64,000 nucleotides of DNA from an uncultured Planctomycetota bacterium (GTDB lineage: Bacteria > Planctomycetota > PUPC01), in assembly GCA_964385685.1 (NCBI GenBank), contig CAYLQD010000004.1, positions 29,397-93,396 on the forward strand. Direction: 5' to 3'. Within the stretch, counting starts at the first letter, position 1; each line of letters begins with the position of its first letter. Below the pieces are notes generated by a model. The model did not search any database, was not told where the DNA came from, and saw only the letters and a list, made by a program, of their open reading frames with translations. The position numbers and the translations under genes were made by a program. This document shows positions 348-38,713 of this stretch, piece by piece.

Positions 348-1466
348 TCAGCGCCGGTCAATTGTGACCTGCCGCCGGTGCAGTGTCTTGCCGCGGACGA
401 AGGTCACGGTGACCGTCGTCCCGGGCTCGGTCGTCAGGACGGCTCGTGCGAGCGTTCGCGCCCGGTCGATCTCGAGAGCCCCGTAACGCACGATGACGTC
501 GCCGGGCTCCAGCCCCGCGTTCGCCGCAGGCGAGAACAGCGCGGCTCGCGGCGGTGAGAACTCCCAGATGCACGCTCCGGTCTTTGCCTCGAGGGCGAAC
601 TTCTTCGCGGCTCGCGCTGTCACATCCTTGATGTGCACGCCGAGGAAGCCCCGCGTTACCTTCCCGTGTTTCTTGAGCTGGCCGAGACCCTCCTCGACCG
701 AGTCGATGGGAACGGAGAACGTGACGCCGCCGGCGGGTTGGAACGCGCCGCCGATCATCGCCGTCGTGATGCCGATGACCTCGCCGCGCCCGTTGAAAAG
801 CGGCCCGCCGCTCGACCCCTGGCCGATCGTGAGGTCGGTCTGGATGTAGTCCTGAAACGGGCCGCCGAGGTCGCGGCGGTCGAGCCCGGCGACGATGCCG
901 GCGCTCACGGTCTGGTGCAGCCGCAGCGGGCTCCCGATCGCCGCGACACGGTCGCCCGCACGGAGTGTCGACGAGTCGCCCAGCGTGGCCGGCACGACCT
1001 TTTCGCCCTCCTTGAGTTCGAGTTTCAGGAGAGCGTAGTCCTCGTGCTCGTCAGATCCGATGAACTTCGCCCGGATGAGACGGCGGTCGCTCATCGTCGC
1101 CCAATACACGTTGCCCGGCTTGATGACGTGGTGGTTGGTCAGGAAGTGGCCCTTCTCATCGATGACGACCCCGCTTCCGCCGTACTTGAGCGGCCCGCCG
1201 CTCACGAGAATCAGCAGCGGATACGTCGCGAAGCTGATGACGTTGCCGGGGATTTCGAGGATCGGGAACGGCTTGAGCAGCCGCAGCGTCCGGCGCCCGA
1301 ACCCGTACGGGATCGTCTCGACCGTCGTGACCATGACGACGGACGGTGCGCACTTGTCGTAGAGGGCGTCCGGTTCGAGATCTTCGGCTGGCTCCGCGGC
1401 CAGGGCGTCGGCGGACAGCAGCAGCATCGCGAGAACGACGGCGCACATCCTCTGGTACGGTCTCAT
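348..1466 (-). CDS. HtrA/DegP-family periplasmic serine protease with C-terminal PDZ domain
   Basis: 372 aa. N-terminal signal peptide (MRPYQRMCAVVLAMLLLSADALAA). Trypsin-fold motifs HH…D…GSSGGPL and a PDZ-like C-terminus. GGAGTGAG Shine-Dalgarno ahead of ATG 1466. Its ATG overlaps the stop of the upstream gene (ATGA). Confidence 0.85.
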   Translation of the reverse strand: MRPYQRMCAVVLAMLLLSADALAAEPAEDLEPDALYDKCAPSVVMVTTVETIPYGFGRRTLRLLKPFPILEIPGNVISFATYPLLILVSGGPLKYGGSGVVIDEKGHFLTNHHVIKPGNVYWATMSDRRLIRAKFIGSDEHEDYALLKLELKEGEKVVPATLGDSSTLRAGDRVAAIGSPLRLHQTVSAGIVAGLDRRDLGGPFQDYIQTDLTIGQGSSGGPLFNGRGEVIGITTAMIGGAFQPAGGVTFSVPIDSVEEGLGQLKKHGKVTRGFLGVHIKDVTARAAKKFALEAKTGACIWEFSPPRAALFSPAANAGLEPGDVIVRYGALEIDRARTLARAVLTTEPGTTVTVTFVRGKTLHRRQVTIDRR

Positions 1467-4321
1467 TCCTTCTCACTCCGGATCAGGTCTTCCACGTGCT
1501 TGCCCAGGGCCTTGACCTTGGCCTCGGGGACAAGGAACACGGCGGGGATGCCGCCGCAGGTCGCATAGTAGTATTTCTGATCGCGGGGCGCCCTCCGTGA
1601 GCGCAGGCCCGGGCGTTCGCTTGCCTCGTCGCCAATGCGAAACCCTGTGGCGGCCTTGCCCCTGCGGCCGATGGTGACGGTCAGGCGCGGCTTCGCCAGC
1701 CCGTAATGCTCGAGCCCCTTCTGGTCGTAGCGCACGTAGCCGTCGGTGACGACCAGGCCCGCCTCGCGAACGAGACGGTCGATGGCGAGCACGTCGGGCT
1801 TGACGTCGCGGTGACTCGTGACTTCCCAGCCGGCGCCTTCCCGCTCGACGGCGACCTGCGCCCCGTCGCGATGGACGATCCGGACGTCAGTGATCTCGCT
1901 CTTGAGCACGTTGACGACGCTTCGTGTAAGAAGCTCCGCCTCGAGTCGCTTGATGTCCTCGGCCCCCATCACGAAAACGATACCGTCCTCGCGGACCGCG
2001 GCGTAGCGGCCGCCGCGCTCTTTGCCGGGGGCCGGCTCGCCAACGACGAGTGTCTTCGACACGAGGACGGTCTCCGGCTTGGCGCCCTTCGCGTCCGCGG
2101 GCGCCGGCGGCGCGGCCTTAATGATGAGAGCGATCAGATGAGCCGGCTGGACGAGACCGTACTTCGGACTCGCAGCGTCGTCTTCCGCGATCAGTTCCAC
2201 GGCGCTCAGGCCGTTGAGCATCGCGATCAGCTCTCGCACGCTCGCGAAATCTGCGGGGGCGAGCAGCGGCCGCGTCAGCAGCCACCGTCCGCCCGGTGCC
2301 TTCTGAGCGGCGTAGTCGGCGCGGCCGCCCTCGAGCCGTAGCGACTTCACGGCACGCGGCTCGAAAGAAAGCACCTTCTTTTGGCGGAAGAGAAGCGGCC
2401 CGCGTTCGGCCTTCGTCAGCACATCGGCGTCGATCTCATATACGTTCGACTCCGAAGGCAGCCGGGCGTAGCATCGACTCCCGTCACCCGTTCTTGCCCC
2501 GAGGTGAAGCATGAACGTCTTTGCATCTTGCGGTGCGGCGGCTGCGTTGAGCGTGGTCTTGATCCGCAGCACCGCCCGCGGCTTGTCGAGTCCGAATCGC
2601 GCCAGGTCCTGCGGCTTGTCGGCCGTCCACGCCCTGATCTTGAGGGCCGCGACCTGAGCCAGGAAGTTGCTCGGGGCCGCGAAGTCGAGCCGAAGCCCCT
2701 CCGGCGATGCCGCTTTCCATTGGAGTCGGCCCTGCCGGACGAGCTTGGTCGTGCGGCCGCCGGCCGTGACCTCCAGCTCGAACGCCGACCACCGGTCGAA
2801 CCCTTCGAACAGTTCGGCGCTGCGAAGGGCCGCTGGATCCGCCGTGAAGTCCTCGACCGCCTGGCTCGGCACAAGCACGACCGACGGCTCCGCTGCGTTC
2901 TTCGCGTATACCACGTCGGCGCGATCGGGCGGCGAACCGCCAATGAGAATCTCTGCGGGAGGGCGCCCCTTCTCCGTCACCGTGATGACGATCTGAGGCG
3001 AGTCGAGACCATAGGGCTTGAGGTCGCCTGGCGCCTCGGCAACGAACCCCCCCTGCGCCACTGTCAGCGTGACGACCTGTCGGACCAGGGGCACGGCGGG
3101 GGCGCCCGCGCGCCCCGTCATCGCTCCCAGCAACCGCCATCTCGACGGATCGTCCGTGCGGCGCGCGATCGTCAGCCCCGGCCGACCGCCCGTGTATGCG
3201 AACGAAACGGACTGGAGATCGGCCAGAGACACGTCGGCGACGCGGCGGTTTCTGAAGAACTCGACCGAGCTTCGGAGCGCCTTCGCGACCGCCGCCGCTC
3301 TGACGACGAGCACAGCCGCCCGCGAAGTGCTTTGAGCGTACAGGACTTCCTTCGATTCCGGCGGCGCCGTCCCAAAGCGGACGACGCGGGGAAGAGAACG
3401 GTTCGGCGACGTGAACTCGACCGTCACGCCCGGTTCGTCGAGTCCGAAAGCGGCGAGGTCCGAGGGCGCATCGGCGGCGAAGGCAGTCGGGCCCTCGGCG
3501 CGGAGCGCCAGCATGTGCTTGAGAACCCCGTTGATGAGAGCATGATTGGCCCGCGCCTTGACGGGCGCCGCGATGACCCAGCGCCCATCTCGTTTTGCGA
3601 ACTCGATCGTTCGCACGTCGTCGGCCTCGCGCACGGCGACCGTCACTCCCGTCACGGCAGACGCCGCAAGTGGCACGACCTCGTCGACCGTCTCGCTGAA
3701 CAGAAGCTGTCTTTCACGGAAGGCCGACGGGGCCCGGTCGATCAGCGGGCAGAGCGTGTCGGGAGCGATCAGCACCTCGGCCCGGCCGCCGACCCGCGCG
3801 TATCGCTGCGGGACGGTTTCTTCGCTGCCGCCGCGCTGTTCGAGCGTGTAGCGGTCGACATACTCCGGTCCGGCGTCACCGGCGACCTCCGCGACACGCG
3901 TTCCGAACGCGATCGTGAGCGTCTCCCCGTCCTCGCTGGCGACGGTCATTCGGAGCAGCGGCTTGGCGAGTTCATATTCCTCGAACCGCCGCGTCTTGTA
4001 GCCGCGCGCGGCCGTGAGCGCTGCAAGCTGCTCGAGGACTTCGCGGACCGCCGTGGCGGACGCGAGGACGTCGACGGGGCGCGTCATTCGCCACTTCCGG
4101 GCGCCGACGCGCTCGAGTACGATGCCGCCCTCCCCCGCGCCCGGGCTGTGGATCTCGATCCGCTTGATCCGCTCGGGCTCCAACTCGGGGAACAGTGTCT
4201 GCTCCGCGAACGTGCGCAGTTCATCCGTGGTCGGGGGCTCGTAGGTCGCGACGAGCGCGGCGAGCGCGCCGATGACGACGGCGAACACACAGAGCATTAT
4301 GATCGCGGGTTTGAGGCGCAT
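1463..4321 (-). CDS. DUF4340-domain protein (GldG-associated, repeated 'YGLD.P' modules)
   Basis: 952 aa. N-terminal transmembrane anchor. Recurring motifs (FGLDEP, YGLDSP, FGLDKP, YGLVQP, YGLAKP) typical of DUF4340 proteins found next to GldG-type ABC auxiliary components. Confidence 0.7.
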   Translation of the reverse strand: MRLKPAIIMLCVFAVVIGALAALVATYEPPTTDELRTFAEQTLFPELEPERIKRIEIHSPGAGEGGIVLERVGARKWRMTRPVDVLASATAVREVLEQLAALTAARGYKTRRFEEYELAKPLLRMTVASEDGETLTIAFGTRVAEVAGDAGPEYVDRYTLEQRGGSEETVPQRYARVGGRAEVLIAPDTLCPLIDRAPSAFRERQLLFSETVDEVVPLAASAVTGVTVAVREADDVRTIEFAKRDGRWVIAAPVKARANHALINGVLKHMLALRAEGPTAFAADAPSDLAAFGLDEPGVTVEFTSPNRSLPRVVRFGTAPPESKEVLYAQSTSRAAVLVVRAAAVAKALRSSVEFFRNRRVADVSLADLQSVSFAYTGGRPGLTIARRTDDPSRWRLLGAMTGRAGAPAVPLVRQVVTLTVAQGGFVAEAPGDLKPYGLDSPQIVITVTEKGRPPAEILIGGSPPDRADVVYAKNAAEPSVVLVPSQAVEDFTADPAALRSAELFEGFDRWSAFELEVTAGGRTTKLVRQGRLQWKAASPEGLRLDFAAPSNFLAQVAALKIRAWTADKPQDLARFGLDKPRAVLRIKTTLNAAAAPQDAKTFMLHLGARTGDGSRCYARLPSESNVYEIDADVLTKAERGPLLFRQKKVLSFEPRAVKSLRLEGGRADYAAQKAPGGRWLLTRPLLAPADFASVRELIAMLNGLSAVELIAEDDAASPKYGLVQPAHLIALIIKAAPPAPADAKGAKPETVLVSKTLVVGEPAPGKERGGRYAAVREDGIVFVMGAEDIKRLEAELLTRSVVNVLKSEITDVRIVHRDGAQVAVEREGAGWEVTSHRDVKPDVLAIDRLVREAGLVVTDGYVRYDQKGLEHYGLAKPRLTVTIGRRGKAATGFRIGDEASERPGLRSRRAPRDQKYYYATCGGIPAVFLVPEAKVKALGKHVEDLIRSEKE

Positions 4322-4338
4322 TCAGGTCTCCCGGATCG

Positions 4339-6390
4339 TCAATTTCGGCGCCCCAGCCAGACAACGGCGCCGGCCAGCACAAAGATAGATGGCAGCACGA
4401 AGACGGAGACGAAGCGGACCGTCCGGATCGCGGACGCGTCGGCCTTGCCGTACGCCGAACGGGCCGCTCTGGGCTGCACGGCAAGCAGTTGGGTGTTGCC
4501 CGTCAGCCACGCGAGCGTCTTGTGAGCGAACTCCTCGTTATTGGCCACCTTTCCGAAGCGAATCATCTGCGCGACGAACATGTTCGACGAGCCGACCACG
4601 ACCATGACGGGCGCCCCGGTCTGCTCGTCTTCGACTGCAACAGCCACCACGCGCCGCCGGCGTTCCTTTTGCTTCACTTCCGCCATCGGTTGGCCCGGCG
4701 GCGGCAGCGGCTGAACCCACGCGTTCGCGCTGCTCGTGAGCAGGCGGGTCGATCGGAACCCTGGAACGGATGCGGTATGAATCTCTGAGGATTCCACAGC
4801 GAGGATTGGCCGCTCCCTGAGCGCGCGGATGCTCGGGTGCAGCTCGGCCGGCGCTTCGGGGTCTGCGTGCGGCGGCCGGTATTCCTGAATGAAGTCGGCG
4901 AAGAACAGCGACGACGGCTCCGCCTGCTCGACCTCCTGGCCGAGCCGCACGGTTCGCCGGACGACCCGGTCGTCGGCCACCACGCTGTCGACGTCGACTT
5001 CGATGCCGTAGCGTCGCAACATGGCGAGCAGCGGCTCGATCTTCGGTCGGTAGTGGGCGCCGGTGGGGTCCAGCATGACCAACGCCCGGCCGCCACGCTC
5101 GAGGTACGACCGGACCACGCTGGCGTGACGCGCTGAGAACGGCGCGAGCGCCTGGGGCGGCCACGTCCGAACAATATGGGAGCACCACGGCCCCGCGATG
5201 ACGAGCACGTCGCAGTCGGCCGGGATGCCTTCGTCGGAGCCCAGGTCGTCGAGGTCGAGGGTCTTGAGCCGGAAGTACTGGCGACGGAGCCCCTCTTCCA
5301 GGAGGCGAATGCTCATAATCTCGACAAGCTGTTTGCGGACCTCGGGTTTGACGAGCGGGCTGGGCGGCCCGACCGAGTTCGGTTTCTCGCCGTGGCCGAC
5401 GACGAAATAGAGCGTGAGGGGGCGGCGCTCCGTGACGGTCGCGAGCGCCCGGTGGAAGACGGCGTCGCCCATGAAGCGGAACGCCGCGTTGGATGCGTCG
5501 GCGGCGGAAGCGGCGCTCGGCAGGCCGCCGGAGTGTGACGCGGGCGCGGCCTCGAGAAGCTCGTGTGACGGCACGGCGACGACGCGGCCCGTCTCCGCGC
5601 ATTCGAGGAAGACCGCGTTCTTCTGAAGCTTGAGTCCCCTTGCCTTGAGCCGGCGCTCCAGCGCTTTCGCCGGCTTGACGTCGCCCTCGCGGCGCAAGTC
5701 GAGGTGGTCGACTTGGATTCGGGGCGAGAGCCGCTCGTACTCGTCGAGGATGGCGGTCACCTCGCGACGCAGCACGTCGTCGGCGACGTCCTCCATGAAG
5801 AAGAGCGTGCTGATGCGGACACTCCTGTTGAGCTTGCCAAGCAGCTCGATGGTCGGTTCCGGGAGCTTGTAGCGGCCGGCCCGAGTGTAGTCGACGCGAG
5901 CGTAGTGCCGGGCGCTGAGGGAGCCGATGAGGGCGAAGCCGAGCGCGGCGAGCGGCAAGGCAACGGCATAGACCAGCACGACGGGCGCCTTCGGGCTGAG
6001 CGCTTTGCTCAGGAGCGCATCGAGGTTGAGGCCAATTCCGCCAAGCAGGAGGAGCGCTCCGAGAGCGGCGACGGTCATCTCGGGCGGCGCGAACCGGGGC
6101 CCGTCGCCGAGGAACCAGACAGCGCCCGCGGCCAGCCCGATCTCGAGGAGCCCAAGCCACGCGGCCAGCCCAGTCAGGCGGCTCGCGAGCCGCTCGCCCC
6201 CGGTGAACACGGTCAGGCCGAGCACACCCAACAGAAACAGAAGGTGGACGGCCGCGAGAATCTCGCGGGCCCACCCGGCCGACGGCTCGAAGAAGCGAAA
6301 CTGATCGGGACCCGATTGAGCCGCTCCGACGAGGTAAACGGGCGCGAGCGCCAATACGGCCGCGACGAGCAACAGGGCGAGCGCCCACAT
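4339..6390 (-). CDS. GldG-like ABC-type transport auxiliary component (membrane-anchored, large extracytoplasmic domain)
   Basis: Maximal ORF is 4339..6672, but its first 94 codons are an Arg/Ser-rich low-complexity stretch overlapping the upstream permease. ATG at 6390 (alternative GTG at 6426) gives a protein starting MWALALLLVAAVLALAPVY with N- and C-terminal transmembrane segments, consistent with GldG-family topology. Confidence 0.65.
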   Translation of the reverse strand: MWALALLLVAAVLALAPVYLVGAAQSGPDQFRFFEPSAGWAREILAAVHLLFLLGVLGLTVFTGGERLASRLTGLAAWLGLLEIGLAAGAVWFLGDGPRFAPPEMTVAALGALLLLGGIGLNLDALLSKALSPKAPVVLVYAVALPLAALGFALIGSLSARHYARVDYTRAGRYKLPEPTIELLGKLNRSVRISTLFFMEDVADDVLRREVTAILDEYERLSPRIQVDHLDLRREGDVKPAKALERRLKARGLKLQKNAVFLECAETGRVVAVPSHELLEAAPASHSGGLPSAASAADASNAAFRFMGDAVFHRALATVTERRPLTLYFVVGHGEKPNSVGPPSPLVKPEVRKQLVEIMSIRLLEEGLRRQYFRLKTLDLDDLGSDEGIPADCDVLVIAGPWCSHIVRTWPPQALAPFSARHASVVRSYLERGGRALVMLDPTGAHYRPKIEPLLAMLRRYGIEVDVDSVVADDRVVRRTVRLGQEVEQAEPSSLFFADFIQEYRPPHADPEAPAELHPSIRALRERPILAVESSEIHTASVPGFRSTRLLTSSANAWVQPLPPPGQPMAEVKQKERRRRVVAVAVEDEQTGAPVMVVVGSSNMFVAQMIRFGKVANNEEFAHKTLAWLTGNTQLLAVQPRAARSAYGKADASAIRTVRFVSVFVLPSIFVLAGAVVWLGRRN

Positions 6391-10304: not shown

Positions 10305-10504
10305 GGATTTTCCTTGCTGGCACGAGTTGCCTCGGCAAAGACCCTGAAATCGTAGGTGGTTATAACTCTCGCGCCCACAGAGAATTGAGGCAGTTTTTCG
10401 GTTTTGTGCCCGGATTTCTGCATCAATCGGCACAGAATGTGCTTTGGGAGAGCCGTCAGGCCCCTGTTTTCAGCCTGTTCTCCCTGGCCTTAGCGGTGGA
10501 GGCG

Positions 10505-10948
10505 ATGGAGGAAGAGACAGATAGAATGACGCTGGACGAGCTCTTTCGGGAGGTCGTCTCGCAGATGGCCGTCGGACTTGGCCGTTTTGCCCAGGCCGTT
10601 CGCTCCGGGGCTCCCAGCCCCGACAGTTGCGAAGAGGCCCACGGAATCGCCCACAGTCTGCACGGGTCCGGCAAGCTATACGGCTATCCCTGCGTCAGCG
10701 AGTTGGGGGCCGCTCTCGAAAAGCTCGTCAATGCCGTGCGACAGGGATATGCAGATCCGACCGCCGCGCTCGCAAGTCTATTCGATGCCTGTTCGGCCGC
10801 ACTGCTCGCGCTCTGCGAGGAGGACGCGTCGAACGAAGACGCCCGCTCGCGAGTTCGTGATCTGACGTGGGAGTCTGAGTGCGTCCTGCACGCGAGCCCC
10901 GCCCGCCCGGGCGCGTCGGGCTCACCCGCCTCTACATCTTCGGTCTGA
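10505..10948 (+). CDS. Hpt (histidine phosphotransfer) domain protein
   Basis: EAHGIAHSLHGSGKLYGYPCVSELGAALEKL matches the Hpt HxLKGSS…LGA…L motif. Maximal ORF starts at 10385, but its first ~40 codons look non-coding; start placed at ATG 10505 (alternative 10526). Confidence 0.5.
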   Translation: MEEETDRMTLDELFREVVSQMAVGLGRFAQAVRSGAPSPDSCEEAHGIAHSLHGSGKLYGYPCVSELGAALEKLVNAVRQGYADPTAALASLFDACSAALLALCEEDASNEDARSRVRDLTWESECVLHASPARPGASGSPASTSSV

Positions 10949-25375: not shown

Positions 25376-25412
25376 ACATGTTGATGAAAATGCGGAAGGT
25401 TTCGCGGCCGAA
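25376..25412. repeat. 37-bp direct repeat, left copy (ACATGTTGATGAAAATGCGGAAGGTTTCGCGGCCGAA)
   Basis: Matches 29951-29987 at 35/37 positions. On the minus strand it encodes a duplicated C-terminus …FGRETFRIFINM plus stop, identical to the end of the membrane-protein gene at 29949-30569. Confidence 0.85.
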
Positions 25413-25521
25413 GAGCGACCGAACGTGCTTGCCAAGAGCCGAGGGGGCCTCTACAATACTCCCGTCCGGCGCGACGCTGGGGCGCCCGAGTCGACAACCC
25501 ATTACGCAGGGAAGCAGTTCA

Positions 25522-28251
25522 TTGCCTGAGCAGATCAAGGACCTCGACAACCTCGAGCCCATCGATCATGCGGTGATCGCGAAGCCGCACACGCCGGCCT
25601 ACAAGATGCACCGCTACTTCGCACGGCGGCCGTGGAGCGTCTTCCGAGCGCTCATCGAGCACTACTCCAATCCTGGCAGCATTGTGCTCGACCCCTTCTG
25701 CGGCGGCGGGGTGACCGTCGTCGAGGGACTTCGGCTCGGCCGCAAGGTTATCGGCGTGGACTTGAACTCGCTGGCGACGTTCATCACGCGCATGGAGGCG
25801 ACCGACGTTGACCTCGATGAATTGCAGGCGGCCTTCGACGCGGTCGAGGCGGCCTGCCGCGAGAAGATCGAAGCGCTCTACATGACCACCTGCCCGAAGT
25901 GCGGCGAGCGTGTCGCAGCCGACTGGTTTGAGTGGAGCAACGTCGTCGAATGTCGAGAGTGCGGCCGGGTCGTGGAACTCCACCGGGCCGAGCGGGTGCG
26001 CAAGGGCGAGAAGATCGCTGGTGTGTCGGCAGGGGAGTACAAGTGCTACCACAAAGGTTGCGAGGCCGCTTGGCGCCCCTCGCAGTGTGACCGAGTCGAT
26101 CCAGTGCTCGTCCGCGTACACGTCAGGTGTCCGAGATGCAAACACCGGGGGGACTTTGGCCCAGCGGCGGATGATCTGCGATTGGCGGATTCCATTCGTA
26201 GCGACCTCGATGCGTGCATGAGGCGCGAGAGACTGTGGTACCCGGACATCGAGATGCCGGATTGGTGGGATCTGCGCCGTCCGTACAATGCGCACATCAA
26301 GCGGTTCGCCCACCTGTTCACACCTCGGAATCTGCTGGCGAACGCTGTCCTTGCAAAGAGCGTGACGGAGGGCCCTTTCGAGGGTCAGGTGCAGAACCTT
26401 CTTGTGTTTGCCTTCAGCGCGTCGCTCCGATTCACCAACCGGATGGTCTTCCGCAACCCGGGCTGGCAAGGCGGAAAGCCCATCGAATGGGCGAGCAGTA
26501 CGTACTGGCTGCCGGAAGTCTTCTGCGAAATAAACACATGGGCCGCATGGGAGAACAGACGAAGGTCGGTAACCCGGGGCAAGCAGTACTCCTGTGAGGA
26601 AATCGGGGACAAATCGGTTCTATGCGACCGCTACGAAGACCTGCGCACCGACGGAACAGCGTTTGTGTGGGCGGGCAGTTCGACCGACCTTCCGCTGCCC
26701 GACAACTCAGCGGACGTGGTCATCACCGACCCGCCTTACGGGAACAACGTCCTGTACGCCGAACTCTGCAATTTCTACTGGGCATGGGTCGGGCGTATGC
26801 TGGAATCGAACGGCCTGATCGACGACTCGGAGGAGGCCATTGTCAGCAAGAAGCATGACAAGGGACTCGCGGAGTATCGGGACCTGCTTTTCCGGGTCTT
26901 CAAGGAATGTCATCGCGTCCTCAAGCCGGGCCGATGGATGGTCATGACGTTCCACAACAAGGAGTTCCAGGTCTGGAATGCCATCCATCTTGCGGCACAC
27001 GACGCCGGGTTTGTCCTGGCCGAGCACGATGGGATGATCTACCAGCCGCCGATCAAGAACTACACGCAGACGATCCAGACCCGAAGAAGCGGTTCGATGC
27101 TCGGCGATTTCATCCTCTCATTCCAGAAGGTGGAGGGGCCGCCGGCGTTCAGGCAGATCGAGCACGCAGAGATCGGGCGGCAGGTCGAGCGCCTGGCGTC
27201 AGAAGCGGTCATGCACCATCACGGCGCCACGCTTTCGATGATATACATGAAGCTGATGCCGTGGCTTCTGAACAACAACCTGCTCGACCAAATCGGCGAG
27301 AAAGAGGTGGTTCCGTTCCTCCGCGGGAACTTCGAGGAGCGGGACGGTGTGTGGCACGTGAAGGAGGTGCAGGGGGCAGAGCTGCGGCAGGCGATGGAGG
27401 AATACAGCCGTCAGCACTACAAGGCATCCTACGAAGAACTGAACTTCGTGCCGGTTGAGGCGCGCATCGAGTACCTCGTCAAGCGCCTGCTCTACGGAAA
27501 GGGCTACGCGACCCAGGACGAGGTCCTGAACACGATCTACACGAACCTCATCAACTCAAACATGGCTGAGGCGCGCGAAATCCACTTGGTGCTCAACAGC
27601 ATAGCCCAGCTCGTGCCCCTGTCCGACGTAACGGGCGGCGGGCGGAAGAAAAAAAGCGGCCGGAAGGTCTGGCGCCTCAAGGAAGACATCGAGCGCGACT
27701 CGCTTTTCCGCGACGTAGAGGGCGCCGACGTTCAGTATCGGCTCGCAAGCTCGGAGGAATCCGACCACGACCTGGCAATCGCGCGCCTGGTCGAAATGGC
27801 GGCGATGCAAGGCATGAAAGCGCACATCGGCAAGACGGAGCAGACGAAGTACACCGAGTTCCGCATCATGACGAGCGACCTGCCGCAGCGCGTGGCGGGA
27901 ATGCCGAAGGCGGCGCGCGAAATCGTGGAGCAGATCGACGTCCTCTGGCACAATGGCGGGAAGGGGGTCGTCGCCGCGTTCGAGGTCGAGCGGACGACGA
28001 CCATCACGAGCGGGATTGACCGCTTTCGCAACCTCCTCGCGGCGGCGCCGGACATCGAGGTCGAACTGTACCTCGTTGTGCCCAAATCCCGCGCGAGGGA
28101 AGTACGGGCCAAGATTGGCTCGCCCGCCAATCGCAAGGACGGCCTTGACAAGAGAATCGGCTACATCTTTCTGGAAGACTTGAACATTCGGAATCGCAGC
28201 GCGTCCAAGGTCGATTTCGAGAAAATCAAGCACAAGGTCAACGGCAAATGA
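25522..28251 (+). CDS. DUF1156-like N6-adenine/N4-cytosine DNA methyltransferase with Cys-rich insert and ~450-aa C-terminal extension
   Basis: MHRYFARRPWSVFRALIEHYSNPGSIVLDPFCGGGVT (DUF1156-like 'WWARRP' segment plus FxGxG motif I). Downstream VVITDPPYGNNV (DPPY motif IV). Several CxxC pairs lie between (CPKCG…CRECG, CPRCKH). The maximal ORF begins at 25378, inside the direct repeat; a likelier start is TTG 25522 (GGGAAG upstream). Start uncertain. Confidence 0.75.
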   Translation: MPEQIKDLDNLEPIDHAVIAKPHTPAYKMHRYFARRPWSVFRALIEHYSNPGSIVLDPFCGGGVTVVEGLRLGRKVIGVDLNSLATFITRMEATDVDLDELQAAFDAVEAACREKIEALYMTTCPKCGERVAADWFEWSNVVECRECGRVVELHRAERVRKGEKIAGVSAGEYKCYHKGCEAAWRPSQCDRVDPVLVRVHVRCPRCKHRGDFGPAADDLRLADSIRSDLDACMRRERLWYPDIEMPDWWDLRRPYNAHIKRFAHLFTPRNLLANAVLAKSVTEGPFEGQVQNLLVFAFSASLRFTNRMVFRNPGWQGGKPIEWASSTYWLPEVFCEINTWAAWENRRRSVTRGKQYSCEEIGDKSVLCDRYEDLRTDGTAFVWAGSSTDLPLPDNSADVVITDPPYGNNVLYAELCNFYWAWVGRMLESNGLIDDSEEAIVSKKHDKGLAEYRDLLFRVFKECHRVLKPGRWMVMTFHNKEFQVWNAIHLAAHDAGFVLAEHDGMIYQPPIKNYTQTIQTRRSGSMLGDFILSFQKVEGPPAFRQIEHAEIGRQVERLASEAVMHHHGATLSMIYMKLMPWLLNNNLLDQIGEKEVVPFLRGNFEERDGVWHVKEVQGAELRQAMEEYSRQHYKASYEELNFVPVEARIEYLVKRLLYGKGYATQDEVLNTIYTNLINSNMAEAREIHLVLNSIAQLVPLSDVTGGGRKKKSGRKVWRLKEDIERDSLFRDVEGADVQYRLASSEESDHDLAIARLVEMAAMQGMKAHIGKTEQTKYTEFRIMTSDLPQRVAGMPKAAREIVEQIDVLWHNGGKGVVAAFEVERTTTITSGIDRFRNLLAAAPDIEVELYLVVPKSRAREVRAKIGSPANRKDGLDKRIGYIFLEDLNIRNRSASKVDFEKIKHKVNGK

Positions 28252-29942
28252 GCGGACTTCTGTCGCCAGACCAGGTTGATGAGCGCCGGGAGTTGTTTCG
28301 GCGGTGCCTGAACATGGACATCCTTCGAGCGCAGCGCTATGCGGTAGAACTCTCCGAAGAGAAGTTCCTCGAAGCCATCAACGGCACGGCGCGAGACCTG
28401 CTCGGGATGAACATGAAGGTTCCGGCTGATTTCCCTGACAACTATTTCGGCCAGTACTACACGATTCAGAACCGGACGCTCGCCGCCGGCAACATCTGGG
28501 ATCAGTTGGAAAACGACATCGTGCAGTGTCTCACGGCTGAGCGGGAGACGCGCGAAGCCCTGGAGTACTTCCTGAATCAGCCGGGATACGAAGCAGACTT
28601 CACTGGGATCAAGGCGCGATTCAACCGATGGCGGAATACACTGGATGTCCTCCTCGGCTTCCGCCTTATCCGCAAGATGCCAAGCCGGACCCGGGACGTC
28701 ACGACCTACGCTCTCTATAACGAGATGGCCCCCTTGCTGAGACGGGTCCTTTCGTCTTCGGCGGCCGACGACCTGCCGGTCATCAACTCGGAAGCGGCGC
28801 AGGCCGAGCTTGCGAACGTCCACGAAATGGAGCGCGAATACGAGCAGTACCTCGAAGGACTGGTCGAGCAGCGCCTGGACGAGACCGTCGAGTTCGGACG
28901 GCAGCACATGAGCTTAGGACTCGTCGCCACGTACTTCAAGGAACTCTTCGGCGGCCTGCTTTATTTCGACGTGCTGCTCTCGTTGGCCCAGCAGTACGGC
29001 ATGACCGCCACGGACATCGTGAATCCCGAGGGCACCAAGGCCGGCTCGACGGGCTTTCATCTGGCGCTCTTCGGCGCTCCGGGAACCGGGAAGACTTTTG
29101 CCATCAAAGACATGATTATGGGCGATGAAAGCAGGACCATACGGCCCCACGGGCTCCCGGGCCTCAACCGGTACTGCGGCGGGATGACGGCGGCAAACTT
29201 CATCCGCATCGGCGAAGCGTACCAGGGCAAGCGTTTCAACTTCGTTGTCACCGAGTTCAACGACTGGTTCCGGTACAAAGGGATGGTCGAACCGCTCAAG
29301 TTAGCCCTTGAGCAGGGCACCATCCGTTACGAGACAAAGACCGAGACTATCGGACCGTACAAATTCAGTTGCTATTTCTCCACCAACTACAACACGAAAA
29401 CAGACAAGGAAGCAGGCTACAGGGTCACGGTTGCTGATCCGAACTTCAACGCCATAGAGGACAGGATGCTCGTTCGGATGCACCGTATGACGAAGGAACG
29501 GCTCGGAGAACTAAGCCGCAGCCAGCGCGATCTCGCGATGGGACGCATGAAGATGCGCCTGGCGGACCAGATAAGAGATCACCTGACCCTTGTATACGCT
29601 GTCCAGACGGAACATCCCCTGGTGAGTGCGCGGTTCCCCAGAAAGCAAGTGGTCTTGAGAGAGGGCTTCTTTGACGCGCTGGAGCACGCCCAGGAAGCTC
29701 TTCTTCGCCAGATAGAGGGGCGTATCCTCTTCAGCATCCGCGTGCGGCAAAACGCCATCAAGTTGGCCGGGGCGTTGGCACTCCTATCCTCTTTCCGGGG
29801 CGACCTCGCACGGCTCGAGATTCCCGATGAGGCGCGCGACCTTGCGCTCCGCTTCTTCGTGGAGGAGATCGCCGTCCGACAGAAGGTTGCCGTAGACGTC
29901 AACGCTGTTCTCGGCGAGCTGCCTGCCGGGCTCGCCAAGTGA
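28248..29942 (+). CDS. P-loop (AAA+-like) ATPase with ~270-aa N-terminal domain of unknown function
   Basis: Walker A LALFGAPGTGKTF, Walker B-like FNFVVTEFNDW, sensor-like CYFSTNYNT. The ATG overlaps the MTase stop (ATGA), implying translational coupling. Confidence 0.7.
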   Translation: MSGLLSPDQVDERRELFRRCLNMDILRAQRYAVELSEEKFLEAINGTARDLLGMNMKVPADFPDNYFGQYYTIQNRTLAAGNIWDQLENDIVQCLTAERETREALEYFLNQPGYEADFTGIKARFNRWRNTLDVLLGFRLIRKMPSRTRDVTTYALYNEMAPLLRRVLSSSAADDLPVINSEAAQAELANVHEMEREYEQYLEGLVEQRLDETVEFGRQHMSLGLVATYFKELFGGLLYFDVLLSLAQQYGMTATDIVNPEGTKAGSTGFHLALFGAPGTGKTFAIKDMIMGDESRTIRPHGLPGLNRYCGGMTAANFIRIGEAYQGKRFNFVVTEFNDWFRYKGMVEPLKLALEQGTIRYETKTETIGPYKFSCYFSTNYNTKTDKEAGYRVTVADPNFNAIEDRMLVRMHRMTKERLGELSRSQRDLAMGRMKMRLADQIRDHLTLVYAVQTEHPLVSARFPRKQVVLREGFFDALEHAQEALLRQIEGRILFSIRVRQNAIKLAGALALLSSFRGDLARLEIPDEARDLALRFFVEEIAVRQKVAVDVNAVLGELPAGLAK

Positions 29943-34769: not shown

Positions 34770-34915
34770 GGGGCTCGCGCGGGCATGCCGCCCACGCCGT
34801 TCGCGCGGGCATTATAGCATTTTGCGCGCCGCCGCTTCAACCGACACCCCCGCCCTTCGAGCGGTGGCCGGCGGGCTCCGTGTGTTTCGTGGCAAGCAAG
34901 CCACCGCTCACTGAC

Positions 34916-35160
34916 CGCTGATCACTGCTTTCTTGTGCCTTGCTTGCCCTGAGCTTGTCGAAGGGGTGCCTTGGTGGCTGCAGAAGCCGTTGCCGTTCTT
35001 CGTGCTCTTCGTGAGCTTCGTGGTTGCTGAGGCCGTTGCCGCTCACCCCTGTTCCCTGCCCCCTGATCACTGCTTCTTTGTGCCTTTGTGCCTTGGTGGT
35101 AAGGAAGCCGTTGCCGTTCGCCTCCGTTCCCTGCTCCCTGATCACTGCTTCATTCGGTTC
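34916..35160. repeat. imperfect tandem repeats (~75-bp unit, ~2.3 copies, first copy with internal ~70-bp expansion) in 1.1-kb non-coding region
   Basis: The unit starts CTGATCACTGCTT(C/T)… and contains CCTTGGTGG…GAAGCCGTTGCCGTT…GTTCCCTGC(C/T)CC. Copies begin at 34916, 35061 and 35136. A GAAGCCGTTGC fragment recurs at 35597. Confidence 0.6.
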
Positions 35161-35908
35161 AGGGCGGATGTCCGGTCCTATGTCACGTCATCGCAGGACG
35201 GCGAAACTCCTTTCCGCGTTTGGCTCGAGGAAGTGCGAATGCGCGAGGTCGCGACGGGGTCGCTCGCCCGGTCGCTCCGCTTGCCAGACGGCCCAGACGT
35301 GGCCGGAAAAATCGGCCCGCCCAAACAAACCGTGCTCATCCGGCAGCAGACTCCCAGGCATCCTTCCACAAGCGGCCCGTACGCAGAAAACCGGGACTGG
35401 CACACCGTTGCCTGTCCCGTTTTCTGCCGGGCCGCCTCGCGTCGCTCTTTCAGACGCGCGCTCCTTCCAGGCGTCATCCCTTTCTACCCAACCCGCACGC
35501 TTTGAACCTCCATCCTCAGAAACACTCACCGCCGAGATCGCTGAGGACGCAGAGAGGAACATGAGCCGGTCTCTGCGATCTCTGCGTCCTCCGCGGTGAA
35601 GAAGCCGTTGCAGCGGGAAACCGTCCCCGTAGAATGCATACACCACAAATCGCCCCAATGCAAGCCCTCCAGCAAGAAATACCACACATTTCTTCGCAAG
35701 ATCTGGCTAACGGATGTTGTGGGCGTATGATACGCCGATGTCGATTGTGTGGCCTTTTTTGGCCAGGACGGAGATTCACGGCCTTTAGACGCAGATAAAC
35801 GCAGAGCGCGCAGACCCGGAAAGGGCCAGGGGGCCGCTTTTGGAGTGCGGCGGCACGACGCCGCTTTCAGTGCGCCCGGAGGGTGGAATTAGGTAAGACG
35901 TCCCCCGA

Positions 35909-36601
35909 TTAGGCCAGTCCCGTCTTCACATCCTTGAACCCGGGCGTAAGCGCTCGGGGGTCAGATTTGGCAAGTTGGACAAACGCCTTGAGGATATCTA
36001 TCGCGGCTACGCGGGCCGGGGCTCGTCGTGTCTTCTTCTTTTTCAGTCGGCCCAGCCATCCGTGGCTGAAGTTCTTGTGCCAGTCCACGAACTCGTCCCA
36101 GGTCCACCATTTCCCGGGTTTGGCGAAAGGCTCACACAGCACAAAGGCCATCCGATCCTTCTTGTCATCGGCATCTTGGTAGCCTGCGATGATCGCATCT
36201 TCCATCCACGGCGCTCTTGCCGGCGTACCTGAGTCGAGAGCTCTCTTCAGTGCCTGCCACGCTCCCTCAGGAGTCTTATACCGACGCCAATCCCACGCCG
36301 CCCCGGTGGAGTCTTTCACGCGCTGCCAAAGACCTTCCGGCGGCGTGCAGAACGCATAATCATTCAAGGGCTGGTGTTTCATCGGTTTGTAGACGAAGCT
36401 AGACCCAAAACCAGACATCGTCATCAGCGTCTCATAGTCCATCTTATTCCAGCCGGCCGCCTTCATACACACCAGGTCGCACATGATCCGTGTCATCGGC
36501 TGCCAGTACGTCTTGTCTGTATACTCGTTGACCCGATCAAAGATGTTCGATACGCGTTTCAGCAACACACGCTTCTGTTTCGTGTGCTTTGACTTGCTCA
36601 T
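35909..36601 (-). CDS. hypothetical protein (paralog 1 of a two-member family; Trp-rich C-terminal domain)
   Basis: 230 aa. Shares a conserved ~80-aa domain with the next gene (AWDWRRYKTPEGAWQALKRALDSGTP…EDAIIAGYQDADDKKDR…WWTWDEFVDW). Codon usage differs from neighbours (AAA/TTT/TAT/GAT codons). Confidence 0.5.
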   Translation of the reverse strand: MSKSKHTKQKRVLLKRVSNIFDRVNEYTDKTYWQPMTRIMCDLVCMKAAGWNKMDYETLMTMSGFGSSFVYKPMKHQPLNDYAFCTPPEGLWQRVKDSTGAAWDWRRYKTPEGAWQALKRALDSGTPARAPWMEDAIIAGYQDADDKKDRMAFVLCEPFAKPGKWWTWDEFVDWHKNFSHGWLGRLKKKKTRRAPARVAAIDILKAFVQLAKSDPRALTPGFKDVKTGLA

Positions 36602-36674
36602 TTGCTCACCTCCTGTTCCCTTTTCTAACCATTCGCTTCAGGCGCGGCTCCCAGCCGTCGCCTGGAAGCGGTTG

Positions 36675-37676
36675 TTAGCCAACGGCCAGTTTCTCCATGC
36701 TTGCCAGAATCTTCTTCTCGGCCTCAAGAGCCGTGCCAACAGTGTCTCTGATAGCTTGCCGACCCGACTCGGTATCGCGCCTATTGCCGAACCCCTCGCT
36801 GGCAAACCGCCCCAAGCTCTCGGCGGCAGTGCGATAGTTCCCGGCGATATCGCCCACCAGGGCGGCCACGTCGCCATTTAGCTTCTCTGCCGCATCGCCG
36901 AAGTAATCGGCGAGGGCCGCGCGCGCGTTATGCTGGAAGTTGATCGCGATGCAGTCGATGTATTCATTCGGGATTTCGATATCCGGCTGCAGCAAGTCGG
37001 CCAGGAACCGCTCGAGGGCGCTGATGCCGTAGTTGGCCGAGACGCCAAAGCGTCCCACGGCGTGGTGGTTGTCCTGCCAATCAACAACCCGATTGGCCAG
37101 AATCCTCACGGCCTCCTCGCGCTGGGGCTTCCGCGTCTTCTCCGCCGCAAAGTACATGCCGCCCCCAGGAAGCGGCACCCATTGGGGAACCCACTCCGAA
37201 AACTTCTCCCAAGGCACCTCGCCGTCCAGGGCTGGGCCGCCTACGCCGCGTGCGCGCACGGACCTGTCTGCAACGTCATCGGCATCCGTGTAGGCATACA
37301 CGACCGAGTCTTCCGGGCCGGCCATCTTCACTGGGTTGCCTGCATCCAGCCCGGTCTTGATGAAATCCCACGCTTCCTGTGGGTCGGCGGTCCACGTGGC
37401 CTCAAAGCGGCACCCCAGCAAGCCGCCGGCGCGCTGTGGCAGGTCGATGTTGGACGAGTAGACACTGGCGAACTGGCCGCGCATGTAACAGAATGCCAGC
37501 CCAAGCCCGTCCGCGGCATGCGTTTCGCCCCAGGCGGTATCGGTATGCCCTGCTGCCTGCACCAGCAGATGCAGCACCTTAACGCCGCTGATGTTATGGG
37601 TATCGAGAATCGCTCTGTTGGCATCAAACAGCGCGTCCAGATTCAGTTCCATACGACCTTGGCTCTGGTGGGACAT
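36675..37676 (-). CDS. hypothetical protein (paralog 2; homologous to 35909-36601 over most of its length)
   Basis: 333 aa. EATWTADPQEAWDFIKTGLDAGNP…EDSVVYAYTDADDVADR…VPWEKFSEWVPQW aligns with paralog 1. Confidence 0.5.
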   Translation of the reverse strand: MSHQSQGRMELNLDALFDANRAILDTHNISGVKVLHLLVQAAGHTDTAWGETHAADGLGLAFCYMRGQFASVYSSNIDLPQRAGGLLGCRFEATWTADPQEAWDFIKTGLDAGNPVKMAGPEDSVVYAYTDADDVADRSVRARGVGGPALDGEVPWEKFSEWVPQWVPLPGGGMYFAAEKTRKPQREEAVRILANRVVDWQDNHHAVGRFGVSANYGISALERFLADLLQPDIEIPNEYIDCIAINFQHNARAALADYFGDAAEKLNGDVAALVGDIAGNYRTAAESLGRFASEGFGNRRDTESGRQAIRDTVGTALEAEKKILASMEKLAVG

Positions 37677-37746
37677 GTGCTCTTCCTCCTTCTGTCCATT
37701 GCGCTAACGCGAAGCTAAGCCGCGGCGTGTTCGCCGTCGGCTACGG

Positions 37747-38175
37747 CTACTTGTTGGCTGTTTCCCTGTATGCCTCCAGCAAGGCAGAAAGAAGAACTCC
37801 GTCGATTGTGGCGCTCTCGAGGTCGCAGCCCTTGATAGCGATGCCGGACAGGTCGCAATCCGTGAACGTGCTGCGGTTGAGATCGCACTCAACGAACTCC
37901 AAGGGCTCCTGCTTCGGAATGTTCCCGTCTTCGTCGGGGTGAAGTGAGAGATGCTTGAACTTCGCTCCACCCATTGTGACGGAGTGCATCGTGATGTTGG
38001 ACAGATTCACGTCCGCGAACGACGCGTTGACCATGTTGACGTGGTCGAACCTGGCTTCGGCCAACGCGACCTGCTGGAACGAACTGCGCGACATGTTGAG
38101 GTCTTCGAACTCGGACCCGGGGATGCCGCCGTATTTCACGACGAGCTTCTCGTCATTCTGAGGCTTCACTTCCAT
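37747..38175 (-). CDS. pentapeptide-repeat protein
   Basis: Tandem A(D/N)LSxx pentapeptide units (FQQVALAEARFDHVNMVNASFADVNLSNITMHSV…DCDLSGIAIKGCDLESA). AAAGGAG Shine-Dalgarno before the ATG. Confidence 0.7.
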   Translation of the reverse strand: MEVKPQNDEKLVVKYGGIPGSEFEDLNMSRSSFQQVALAEARFDHVNMVNASFADVNLSNITMHSVTMGGAKFKHLSLHPDEDGNIPKQEPLEFVECDLNRSTFTDCDLSGIAIKGCDLESATIDGVLLSALLEAYRETANK

Positions 38176-38713
38176 TTCGATCTCCTTTCATTCAGCCAAC
38201 GCTTGGGCTGAGGTGCGCGGTCCCCCCGTGCATCATGACCGGCCTGCGCGCTCAAGACAGCCCTTCCGCCGACGATGAAGGTCCCTGATGCCGATTCGGG
38301 GGAGTACCTGATTATGCGCCGCCCCCGGTGAAGTGTCAAACGCTTTCCACCCTCAAGGAGGTGACCCATGACGAAAGACAAAGAGACCGAAAAGAAGCCT
38401 CTGAAGAGGAATCGCGTCGCCCCTCATGGCATCCCCCTCGGGCCCAGCAAGCAGGTCGAGGTGATAGCTCTGGGGACACAATACTCAACTCCGCCCGGGT
38501 TTCTTCGCCGAGGGTCTCGGTCCGGGCTTCCGCCTGCGAAGTACACGGCCCCAGCGATCGGCACGATCATGCCCCCATCGAACCGTCCTGTCAAGGACGA
38601 TAGTCTGATGTCTCCAGACTCCCGCGCCGCATCCCATCTTGACCACCGCGCCGCCCCCTGATAGACTGCTTCGACCGAATCGGACGCCGCAACTCACTGG
38701 GAACCGAAGACCT

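Follow-up and report, generated by a model that had tools for sequence, protein, structure and literature searches.

Genes at the locus

We analyzed a 64-kb stretch (the window) of contig CAYLQD010000004.1 from an uncultured Planctomycetota bacterium (GCA_964385685.1), and within it an islet of three genes, which encode a pentapeptide-repeat protein (PRP) and two proteins that we call B and A. The three open reading frames (ORFs) of the original prediction, which was made from the letters of this DNA, were all confirmed exactly, on the minus strand (Table 1). The whole is probably best explained as a small accessory islet of three independent genes, with B and A belonging to a fold family that lacks a catalytic triad and gene A being a remnant.

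The trio is co-oriented, with PRP first and intergenic gaps of 70 and 73 nt. Gene B is preceded by an AGGAGG ribosome-binding site, and gene A also has a good ribosome-binding site (GGAGGTGAGCAAATG). A predicted sigma-70-like site lies about 135 nt upstream of PRP and could drive PRP-B-A; it is a consensus match that carries no evidence of function.

Table 1. Features of the islet and its borders, and the sugar kinase genes of relatives. Positions are those of the window unless another contig is named.
Feature	Position	Strand	Size	Basis
gene A	35909-36601	-	230 aa	ORF call
gene B	36675-37676	-	333 aa	ORF call
PRP (pentapeptide-repeat protein gene)	37747-38175	-	142 aa	ORF call
gene A truncation breakpoint	35909..35914	-		DNA alignment with L003 and L010
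promoter-like site TTGACA-17-CATAAT	38311..38339	-		consensus scan only, 11/12 matches
non-coding spacer	34770..35908	.	1.1 kb	repeats and hairpin
GHMP sugar kinase in relatives	L018 2465-3664; L019 2154-3323; L020 650-1774			compared with window 38176-38713

Paralogy of A and B and truncation of gene A

Proteins A and B are 27% identical over 172 amino acids (aa; BLASTP, E=2e-10). The homology claimed for them in the original prediction is therefore borne out, and the motif string quoted there is present. The shared region was labelled a Trp-rich C-terminal domain, which is incorrect, as it is the second half of the N-terminal domain. In the DNA, a residual stretch of 40 nt (70% identity) is found at the DADD motif. 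Full-length proteins of the A type align with B end to end, and A and B are full-length-type paralogues from two anciently diverged subfamilies. Recent tandem or local duplication is ruled out because the two share only 27% identity, whereas orthologues elsewhere are much more similar to each (78% identical to A and 84% to B). Further copies of the family were not identified in any of the six frames of the window.

Gene A is a 3'-truncated remnant of an A-type paralogue of ~350 aa. Its orthologues (P0028-31 and P0033) are 343-352 aa long, compared with 230 aa in the window, where the protein ends in ..KDVKTGLA* and the orthologues go on with GIAAYADDIAEG.. Homology of gene A to the DNA of contigs L003 and L010 stops after codon 230 (GCC), with TAA immediately next, and 35912/35913 is the limit of the blastn and tblastn matches. 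No part of the 64-kb window encodes the 120 aa that are missing. Gene A keeps the N-domain together with the initial helices of the C-domain; the conserved residues D227, C242, Q248, R252, Y281, R306 and E320 (B numbering) are lacking. Gene A has lost its C-terminal third at the breakpoint, and it is most likely non-functional.

Next to the breakpoint is the non-coding spacer, which contains degenerate ~75-nt repeats (34900-35160) and a hairpin (the 17-bp inverted repeat I4, 35539-35595). A second copy of the spacer was not found within the window. The junction of gene A with the spacer, and the spacer itself, recur in four assemblies from different samples (L014-L017) with 99.6-100% identity; two of these assemblies break within the spacer repeats. 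An assembly chimera is thus ruled out as the cause of the truncation, which is biological and not an assembly artefact. The spacer is foreign DNA, lies directly against the truncated end of gene A and parts the islet from trkH/trkA.

Gene neighbourhoods in other genomes

Neighbourhoods were compared on all longer contigs with a homologue of A, B or PRP. B occurs in five distinct contexts (the window, L001, L004, L006/L013 and L009), A in two more (L003 and L010) and PRP in one (L011). Blastn similarity between contigs L001-L013 and the window is seen only within gene bodies (68-85% identity) and does not extend past the gene borders. Across the examined contexts of B, A and PRP, no neighbouring gene is held in common with the window; the genes beside the homologues elsewhere are unrelated and have housekeeping or glycoside-hydrolase functions. 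In L001, L003, L006, L009 and L010, A and B do not lie side by side, and no PRP was identified near any other A or B in the examined contigs. A PRP homologue that is 86% identical, in GCA_004196275.1, has an SDR gene after it, and not B.

The description of the trio as a module did not hold, given that similarity stops at gene borders and no neighbour is common. PRP, B and A are three independent accessory genes that form no conserved or co-evolving module.

On one contig, L004, an A-like unit is found ~7 kb from the B orthologue, the only case outside the window in which both subfamilies occur within less than 10 kb. Positions 598-4624 of that contig encode an Acetyltransf_3 protein of 593 aa and then a protein of 747 aa, in which the A-like unit is 30% identical to A (E 6e-24). 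Within the set of L001, L004, L006, L013 and L009, a contig end is 0.2-0.6 kb away from four of the B orthologues and 2.9 kb away from that of L009. The close PRP homologue on L011 is 146 bp from a contig end. These positions may reflect strain-variable or repeat-rich surroundings.

Predicted fold of A and B

The Pfam model BtrH_N (PF14399) scores 28.1 bits with A and 23.5 bits with B, both below its gathering cut-off of 29.7, and weak matches to it were found in 24 of 51 family members (best E 2.7e-6). Neither protein has a match in NCBIfam, PADLOC or PHROGs. AlphaFold2 models were made for B (29 aligned sequences) and for the full-length A-type protein P0028 (50 aligned sequences), with a predicted local distance difference test score (pLDDT) of 94.4 and a predicted template-modelling score (pTM) of 0.91 for B, and 94.3 and 0.92 for P0028. 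The model of B, an intact stand-alone protein with no signal peptide, comprises a papain-like alpha/beta N-domain (approximately residues 28-180) and a helical-bundle C-domain (186-332). That of P0028 likewise consists of an alpha/beta N-domain followed by a helical bundle.

In Foldseek searches of the PDB, the only matches at E<=0.001 were to AziU3/AziU2 (7WUW and 8GS1; E 1e-7 to 1e-6) and to CtaG (9QUZ and variants), the latter for the A-type model with E 1e-4 to 1e-3 and template-modelling (TM) scores of 0.50-0.57. The next matches were weak ones to the papain-like proteins SpeB and UfSP and to a C39-like peptidase, and covered the N-domain only. No meaningful PDB match came from sequence searches with B-family, mixed-family and single-protein queries or with profiles.

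CtaG, BtrH and AsbE have a bipartite architecture with a papain-like N-domain and a helix-rich C-domain, and CtaG has the catalytic triad Cys11-His128-Asp144; AziU2/U3 have the CtaG fold in common, but not its function (PMC12865890). In our models the A/B family has this two-domain fold of BtrH, CtaG, AsbE and AziU2/U3. The suggestion of a papain-like or BtrH_N-type fold in the original prediction is thus supported by the AlphaFold2 models, the Foldseek matches and the sub-threshold BtrH_N scores.

Conserved residues and the missing triad

Column statistics were calculated over 151 full-length family units (columns in B numbering). In the N-domain and beyond it, the conserved residues are G43, G57, F62, Y64, R82, G88, W103, D111, G113, E122, G128, Y129, R138, W153, W156, F159, G217, D227, C242 (H243), Q248, R252, Y281, W288, R306 and E320, among which Y64, R82, E122, R138, D227, C242, Q248, R252, Y281, R306 and E320 form the conserved polar set. 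The nucleophile position, where papain-like enzymes have their nucleophilic Cys, caps the N-terminus of the first long helix and precedes the invariant G43 by 13 residues. It is occupied by Ser in 60 of the 151 units, Thr in 26, Val in 17, Gly in 13 and Ala in 9 (Ser or Thr in ~57%), by Ser30 in B and by Thr37 in A. Across the 151 units, the N-domain has neither a conserved Cys nor a conserved His. The Cys-His-Asp triad is not conserved in the A/B family.

We infer that the strongly conserved E122 and R138 stand at the positions of the triad His and Asp, because the family motif E-x-hhhh-G-Y-x-D resembles H-x-hhhh-G-Y-D, the motif of C39_2/BtrH_N-type domains, and because the two are 16 residues apart, as are His128 and Asp144 in CtaG.

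The loss of the triad argues against both a protease and a thioester transacylase of the CtaG type. It is very improbable that A and B are papain-like, C39-type cysteine peptidases that process a peptide substrate, although NCBI names two homologues of B (P0012 and P0017) "cysteine peptidase family C39 domain-containing protein", and the N-domain is papain-like, as it would be in such a peptidase, and weakly resembles SpeB, UfSP and a C39-like peptidase in Foldseek. The nucleophile position holds Ser, Thr, Val, Gly or Ala in the absence of any conserved Cys or His in this domain, Pfam C39 and C39_2 give no match at E<=1 (only BtrH_N does, below threshold), and the matches over the full length are to the non-proteolytic CtaG and AziU. 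We infer that B is not a protease.

Wider family and possible function

A profile search of 1.84 billion cluster representatives identified at least 313 family clusters at 50% identity (E<=1e-3), with 120 at E<=1e-30, and nearly all of the 313 span the whole ~300-aa unit. A word-indexed protein search with the broad profile gave just 11 hits, none of them usefully named. Some members are stand-alone proteins without a signal peptide, as are A and B; others have a signal peptide or a lipoprotein signal. The unit is also found C-terminal to BlaR1-type M56 membrane domains (P0051, P0054, P0061 and P0114), to extracytoplasmic function (ECF) sigma factors (P0074, P0092 and P0105), to MerR (P0046) and to ArsR-type helix-turn-helix domains (P0083 and P0131). 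This location at the input position of four kinds of regulator suggests a ligand-sensing or ligand-processing role. In other members the unit is accompanied by a HEAT, FGE-sulfatase or DUF1080 domain.

Some family members are giant proteins that contain 5-6 units (P0041, 2501 aa; P0060, 2590 aa; P0174, 2969 aa; P0044, 1549 aa), and P0041 and P0060 start with several transmembrane-like segments. About half of the 52 members of at least 560 aa have one canonical (strongly matching) unit and one or more divergent units. Eight proteins (P0038, P0048, P0085, P0087, P0098, P0103, P0121 and P0158) carry a common N-terminal module of ~90 aa before the A/B-type unit, with a consensus of roughly PSLEHLRKQAKDLLKAH..GD..C..LR.LRRF; no Pfam match to this module was found in the two members scanned (P0048 and P0087).

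Three conserved arginines hint at an anionic ligand. As a best estimate, B would be cytoplasmic and would bind or modify a small, probably anionic molecule, a role that we regard as plausible but somewhat short of likely. A broader proposal is more speculative: the A/B proteins might be an undescribed, triad-less branch of the BtrH/CtaG/AziU proteins that was recruited as a small-molecule sensor, whether standing alone, secreted or joined to BlaR1-type, ECF-sigma, MerR or ArsR regulators, and often as a pseudo-heterodimer of a canonical and a divergent unit similar to AziU2/U3, with a ligand site formed by R82, E122, R138, D227, C242, Q248 and R252.

Base composition and codon usage

The 41 other genes of the window served as the reference (GC 0.655±0.025; GC at third codon positions, GC3, 0.847±0.044). 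In 1-kb windows the islet has a GC of 0.576-0.614, compared with ~0.65-0.69 on both sides. Gene A (GC 0.558, GC3 0.697, codon z -7.5) is the most deviant of the 44 genes, and is followed here by gene B (GC 0.622, GC3 0.751, codon z -6.2) and PRP (GC 0.566, GC3 0.797, codon z -2.75). GC3 is 3.4 standard deviations (SD) under the mean in gene A and 2.2 SD in gene B. The low total GC of PRP mostly reflects amino-acid composition, as its GC3 is only ~1.1 SD low.

The lower GC and different codon choice that had been noticed by eye are thus confirmed quantitatively, both by windowed GC and by the codon z of all three genes against the other 41. The deviation is graded, and it is not unique in the window, because 28248-29942, 10385-10948 and 25378-28251 deviate similarly. 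Another block of low GC (0.59-0.61, with codon z values of -5.1 and -6.6) spans 25378-29942 (+) and encodes a 957-aa DNA methyltransferase (N6_N4_Mtase; PHROG DNA methyltransferase, 1.6e-46) and then an overlapping 564-aa protein for which no family match was found; this block is probably a restriction-modification-type island. At 10385-10948 (+) is an ORF of 187 aa that is deviant like the islet genes (GC3 0.70, codon z -6.5).

Synteny break and origin of the islet

Left of the islet are the spacer and then trkH/trkA. To the right, and divergent from the islet, are genes for a sugar-1-phosphate nucleotidyltransferase, a KamA-like radical-SAM aminomutase and a GH2 mannosidase-like protein. The remaining window is ordinary chromosome, with mutL, argG, hisF, sigma-54 activators and beta-galactosidase. 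The original prediction placed the islet between a repeat-rich non-coding region and a small ORF of low GC3. The former is the repeat-bearing spacer; the latter (38368-38661, +), in the intergenic region between PRP and the nucleotidyltransferase gene, has a Pro-rich, low-complexity product, and nothing was seen to support its status as a real gene.

In relatives (L018-L021, with nucleotidyltransferases that are 55-61% identical) the nucleotidyltransferase and KamA genes are kept together, along with GH2 where the contig extends that far. In L018-L020 a GHMP (galactokinase-like) sugar kinase gene lies directly upstream of the nucleotidyltransferase gene. This kinase is absent from all 64 kb of the window and the islet is found in its place; therefore, the islet marks a synteny break, and the right-hand synteny (kinase, nucleotidyltransferase, KamA, GH2) ends exactly at it. 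Synteny comparison thus puts the islet at a break, with A, B and PRP unlinked in the other genomes examined. The presumed pair of kinase and nucleotidyltransferase is split in the window.

The families are rare and patchily distributed: there are 26 homologue clusters at 90% identity for B (50-100% identity to B) and 6 for A, and one species matched among 185,579 genome representatives in a scan with a single peptide pattern. The few close homologues with a taxon label are from Planctomycetota or Verrucomicrobiota metagenome bins; the gene A orthologue at 78% identity is labelled Verrucomicrobiota and the B relatives Planctomycetota. B orthologues elsewhere have a GC near that of their hosts (0.617/0.602, 0.632/0.643, 0.623/0.630 and 0.702/0.703 for gene and host, respectively), unlike gene B of the window, which at 0.622 is below its host and resembles the orthologue-bearing genomes of 0.60-0.64 GC. 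Gene B could accordingly have come from a relative whose GC is 60-63%. An origin from a defence system or a phage was dropped, as PADLOC and PHROGs returned no matches for A or B and a viral fold search (BFVD) none at E<=0.001.

We consider horizontal or recombinational acquisition of the islet likely. The islet would probably have been acquired, or shuffled in, from related lower-GC genomes at a rearrangement-prone chromosomal spot. Alternatively, and with rather low probability, the genes are old residents of the genome that are inherited vertically and expressed at a low level, so that low GC3 results from relaxed codon selection and amino-acid composition and the differing neighbourhoods from scrambled gene order. 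Long residence in the lineage group is suggested by the agreement of B orthologues with their hosts' composition, and is consistent with the GC3 of PRP (0.797, within ~1.1 SD of the background), with unrelated window genes of equally low codon scores, and with the fact that mobility genes and insertion scars were not found. However, vertical residence does not readily account for the low GC3 of A and B, with A the most deviant of 44 genes, or for the very sparse occurrence of the A/B family among sequenced genomes. Right-side synteny is kept at only 58-61% protein identity, yet stops exactly at the islet, a clean breakpoint cuts gene A, and labelled relatives of A and B fall in different phyla (Verrucomicrobiota at 78% for A, and Planctomycetota for B). 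Of the horizontal acquisition that was originally proposed, the atypical composition, the patchy families and the synteny break stand in support; the marks of a classical genomic island do not. Deviant base composition and codon usage are found in such islands as in the islet, but the latter has no integrase, no tRNA target and no flanking direct repeats.

Several observations count against the account of an acquired accessory islet with a gene remnant and a triad-less family. Composition alone is no proof of transfer, given the near-background GC3 of PRP and the other equally deviant genes of the window. The left flank (trkH/trkA) is not shared with the compared relatives and so does not establish an insertion between two conserved neighbours. 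No integrase or flanking direct repeats were found, and tRNA and Rfam scans of the 64 kb gave no matches. Gene A still has an open frame preceded by a ribosome-binding site and may be expressed, and proximity of A-type and B-type units was seen twice (in the window, and within 7 kb on L004), which could indicate functional pairing. As to the family, the mapping of Ser30, E122 and R138 to the triad positions is drawn from secondary-structure position, motif analogy and spacing and not from a structural superposition, and the conserved Cys242(-His243) of the C-domain, with many conserved charged residues, is as compatible with an enzyme as with a sensor.

Pentapeptide-repeat protein and comparison with known systems

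The identification of a pentapeptide-repeat gene holds, with three Pfam models above threshold: Pentapeptide_4 (PF13599, 52.5 bits, cut-off 38, E=5e-14), PF00805 (42.3 bits, cut-off 20.2) and PF13576 (42 bits, cut-off 27). Pentapeptide proteins can act as immunity factors, and McbG, AlbG and Qnr-type proteins protect gyrase. PRP resembles Qnr, MfpA and HetL in having such repeats, but differs in length (142 aa compared with ~180-220 aa), in scores against the NCBIfam models of these proteins (18-31 bits, best 30.7, against cut-offs of 240-500) and in having no conserved partner gene. Only the fold class of PRP can be assigned.

AziU3/AziU2, of the azinomycin pathway of Streptomyces sahachiroi, are the best structural match of both models (Foldseek probability 1.0 over ~330-360 columns). 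They have the same length (~330 aa) and two-domain layout as B, and they form a complex of two paralogous chains that is echoed by the adjacent A and B genes and by the tandem units of long relatives. In contrast, identity is only 14-16%, with TM scores of 0.43-0.50 and a root-mean-square deviation of 7-8 A, and there is no sequence-level link even with profiles. Furthermore, genes of an azabicycle or amino-carrier-protein pathway are lacking near the islet, gene A is truncated and the adjacency of A and B is not conserved.

This likeness raises the idea that the trio is a working unit of a natural-product type, in which A and B form a heterodimeric enzyme similar to AziU2/AziU3 and PRP provides self-protection, but we judge it improbable. 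Such a unit might be expected from the closest solved structure being a two-chain complex of paralogues, from the tandem of canonical and divergent units in about half of the long family members, from the A-like unit and B orthologue within 7 kb on L004, and from the three co-oriented genes with gaps of 70-73 nt and one promoter-like site. Yet A is without its C-terminal third, including seven conserved polar residues, and none of the other genomes examined has A, B and PRP linked to one another. The islet adjoins trkH/trkA and the sugar-nucleotidyltransferase, with no gene beside it for a carrier protein, ATP-grasp, NRPS/PKS, sulfotransferase or exporter, and the scores of PRP come nowhere near any Qnr or MfpA cut-off. 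Within the genome, the islet is an ordinary, small variable spot with accessory genes and a gene remnant.

The transacylases CtaG, BtrH and AsbE have in common with the A/B family the bipartite fold, as modelled, and the weak BtrH_N matches. They differ in their Cys-His-Asp triad, which the A/B family does not conserve, and the Pfam scores of A and B are below the gathering threshold. Fusions within the A/B family are to signal-transduction modules and not to biosynthetic ones, and no carrier-protein or biosynthetic genes are found beside the islet (trkH/trkA, nucleotidyltransferase and KamA genes are).

More broadly, the recently defined two-domain fold of CtaG, BtrH and AziU includes a sizeable, unannotated branch (at least 313 clusters at 50% identity) that has abandoned the triad and is found at the sensor position of several kinds of transcriptional signalling protein. 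If this is true, the A/B-type unit would be an input domain new to BlaR1-like and ECF-sigma signalling, and the "C39 cysteine peptidase" label given by annotation pipelines would be corrected. Transducers of the BlaR1/MecR1 type join an enzyme-derived sensor to an M56 membrane protease. The sensor of BlaR1 is a penicillin-binding domain, and the A/B-type unit of the fused proteins follows the M56 domain where BlaR1 has this sensor. The folds are unrelated, so the likeness is architectural only, and A and B of the window differ from these transducers in being stand-alone and cytoplasmic.

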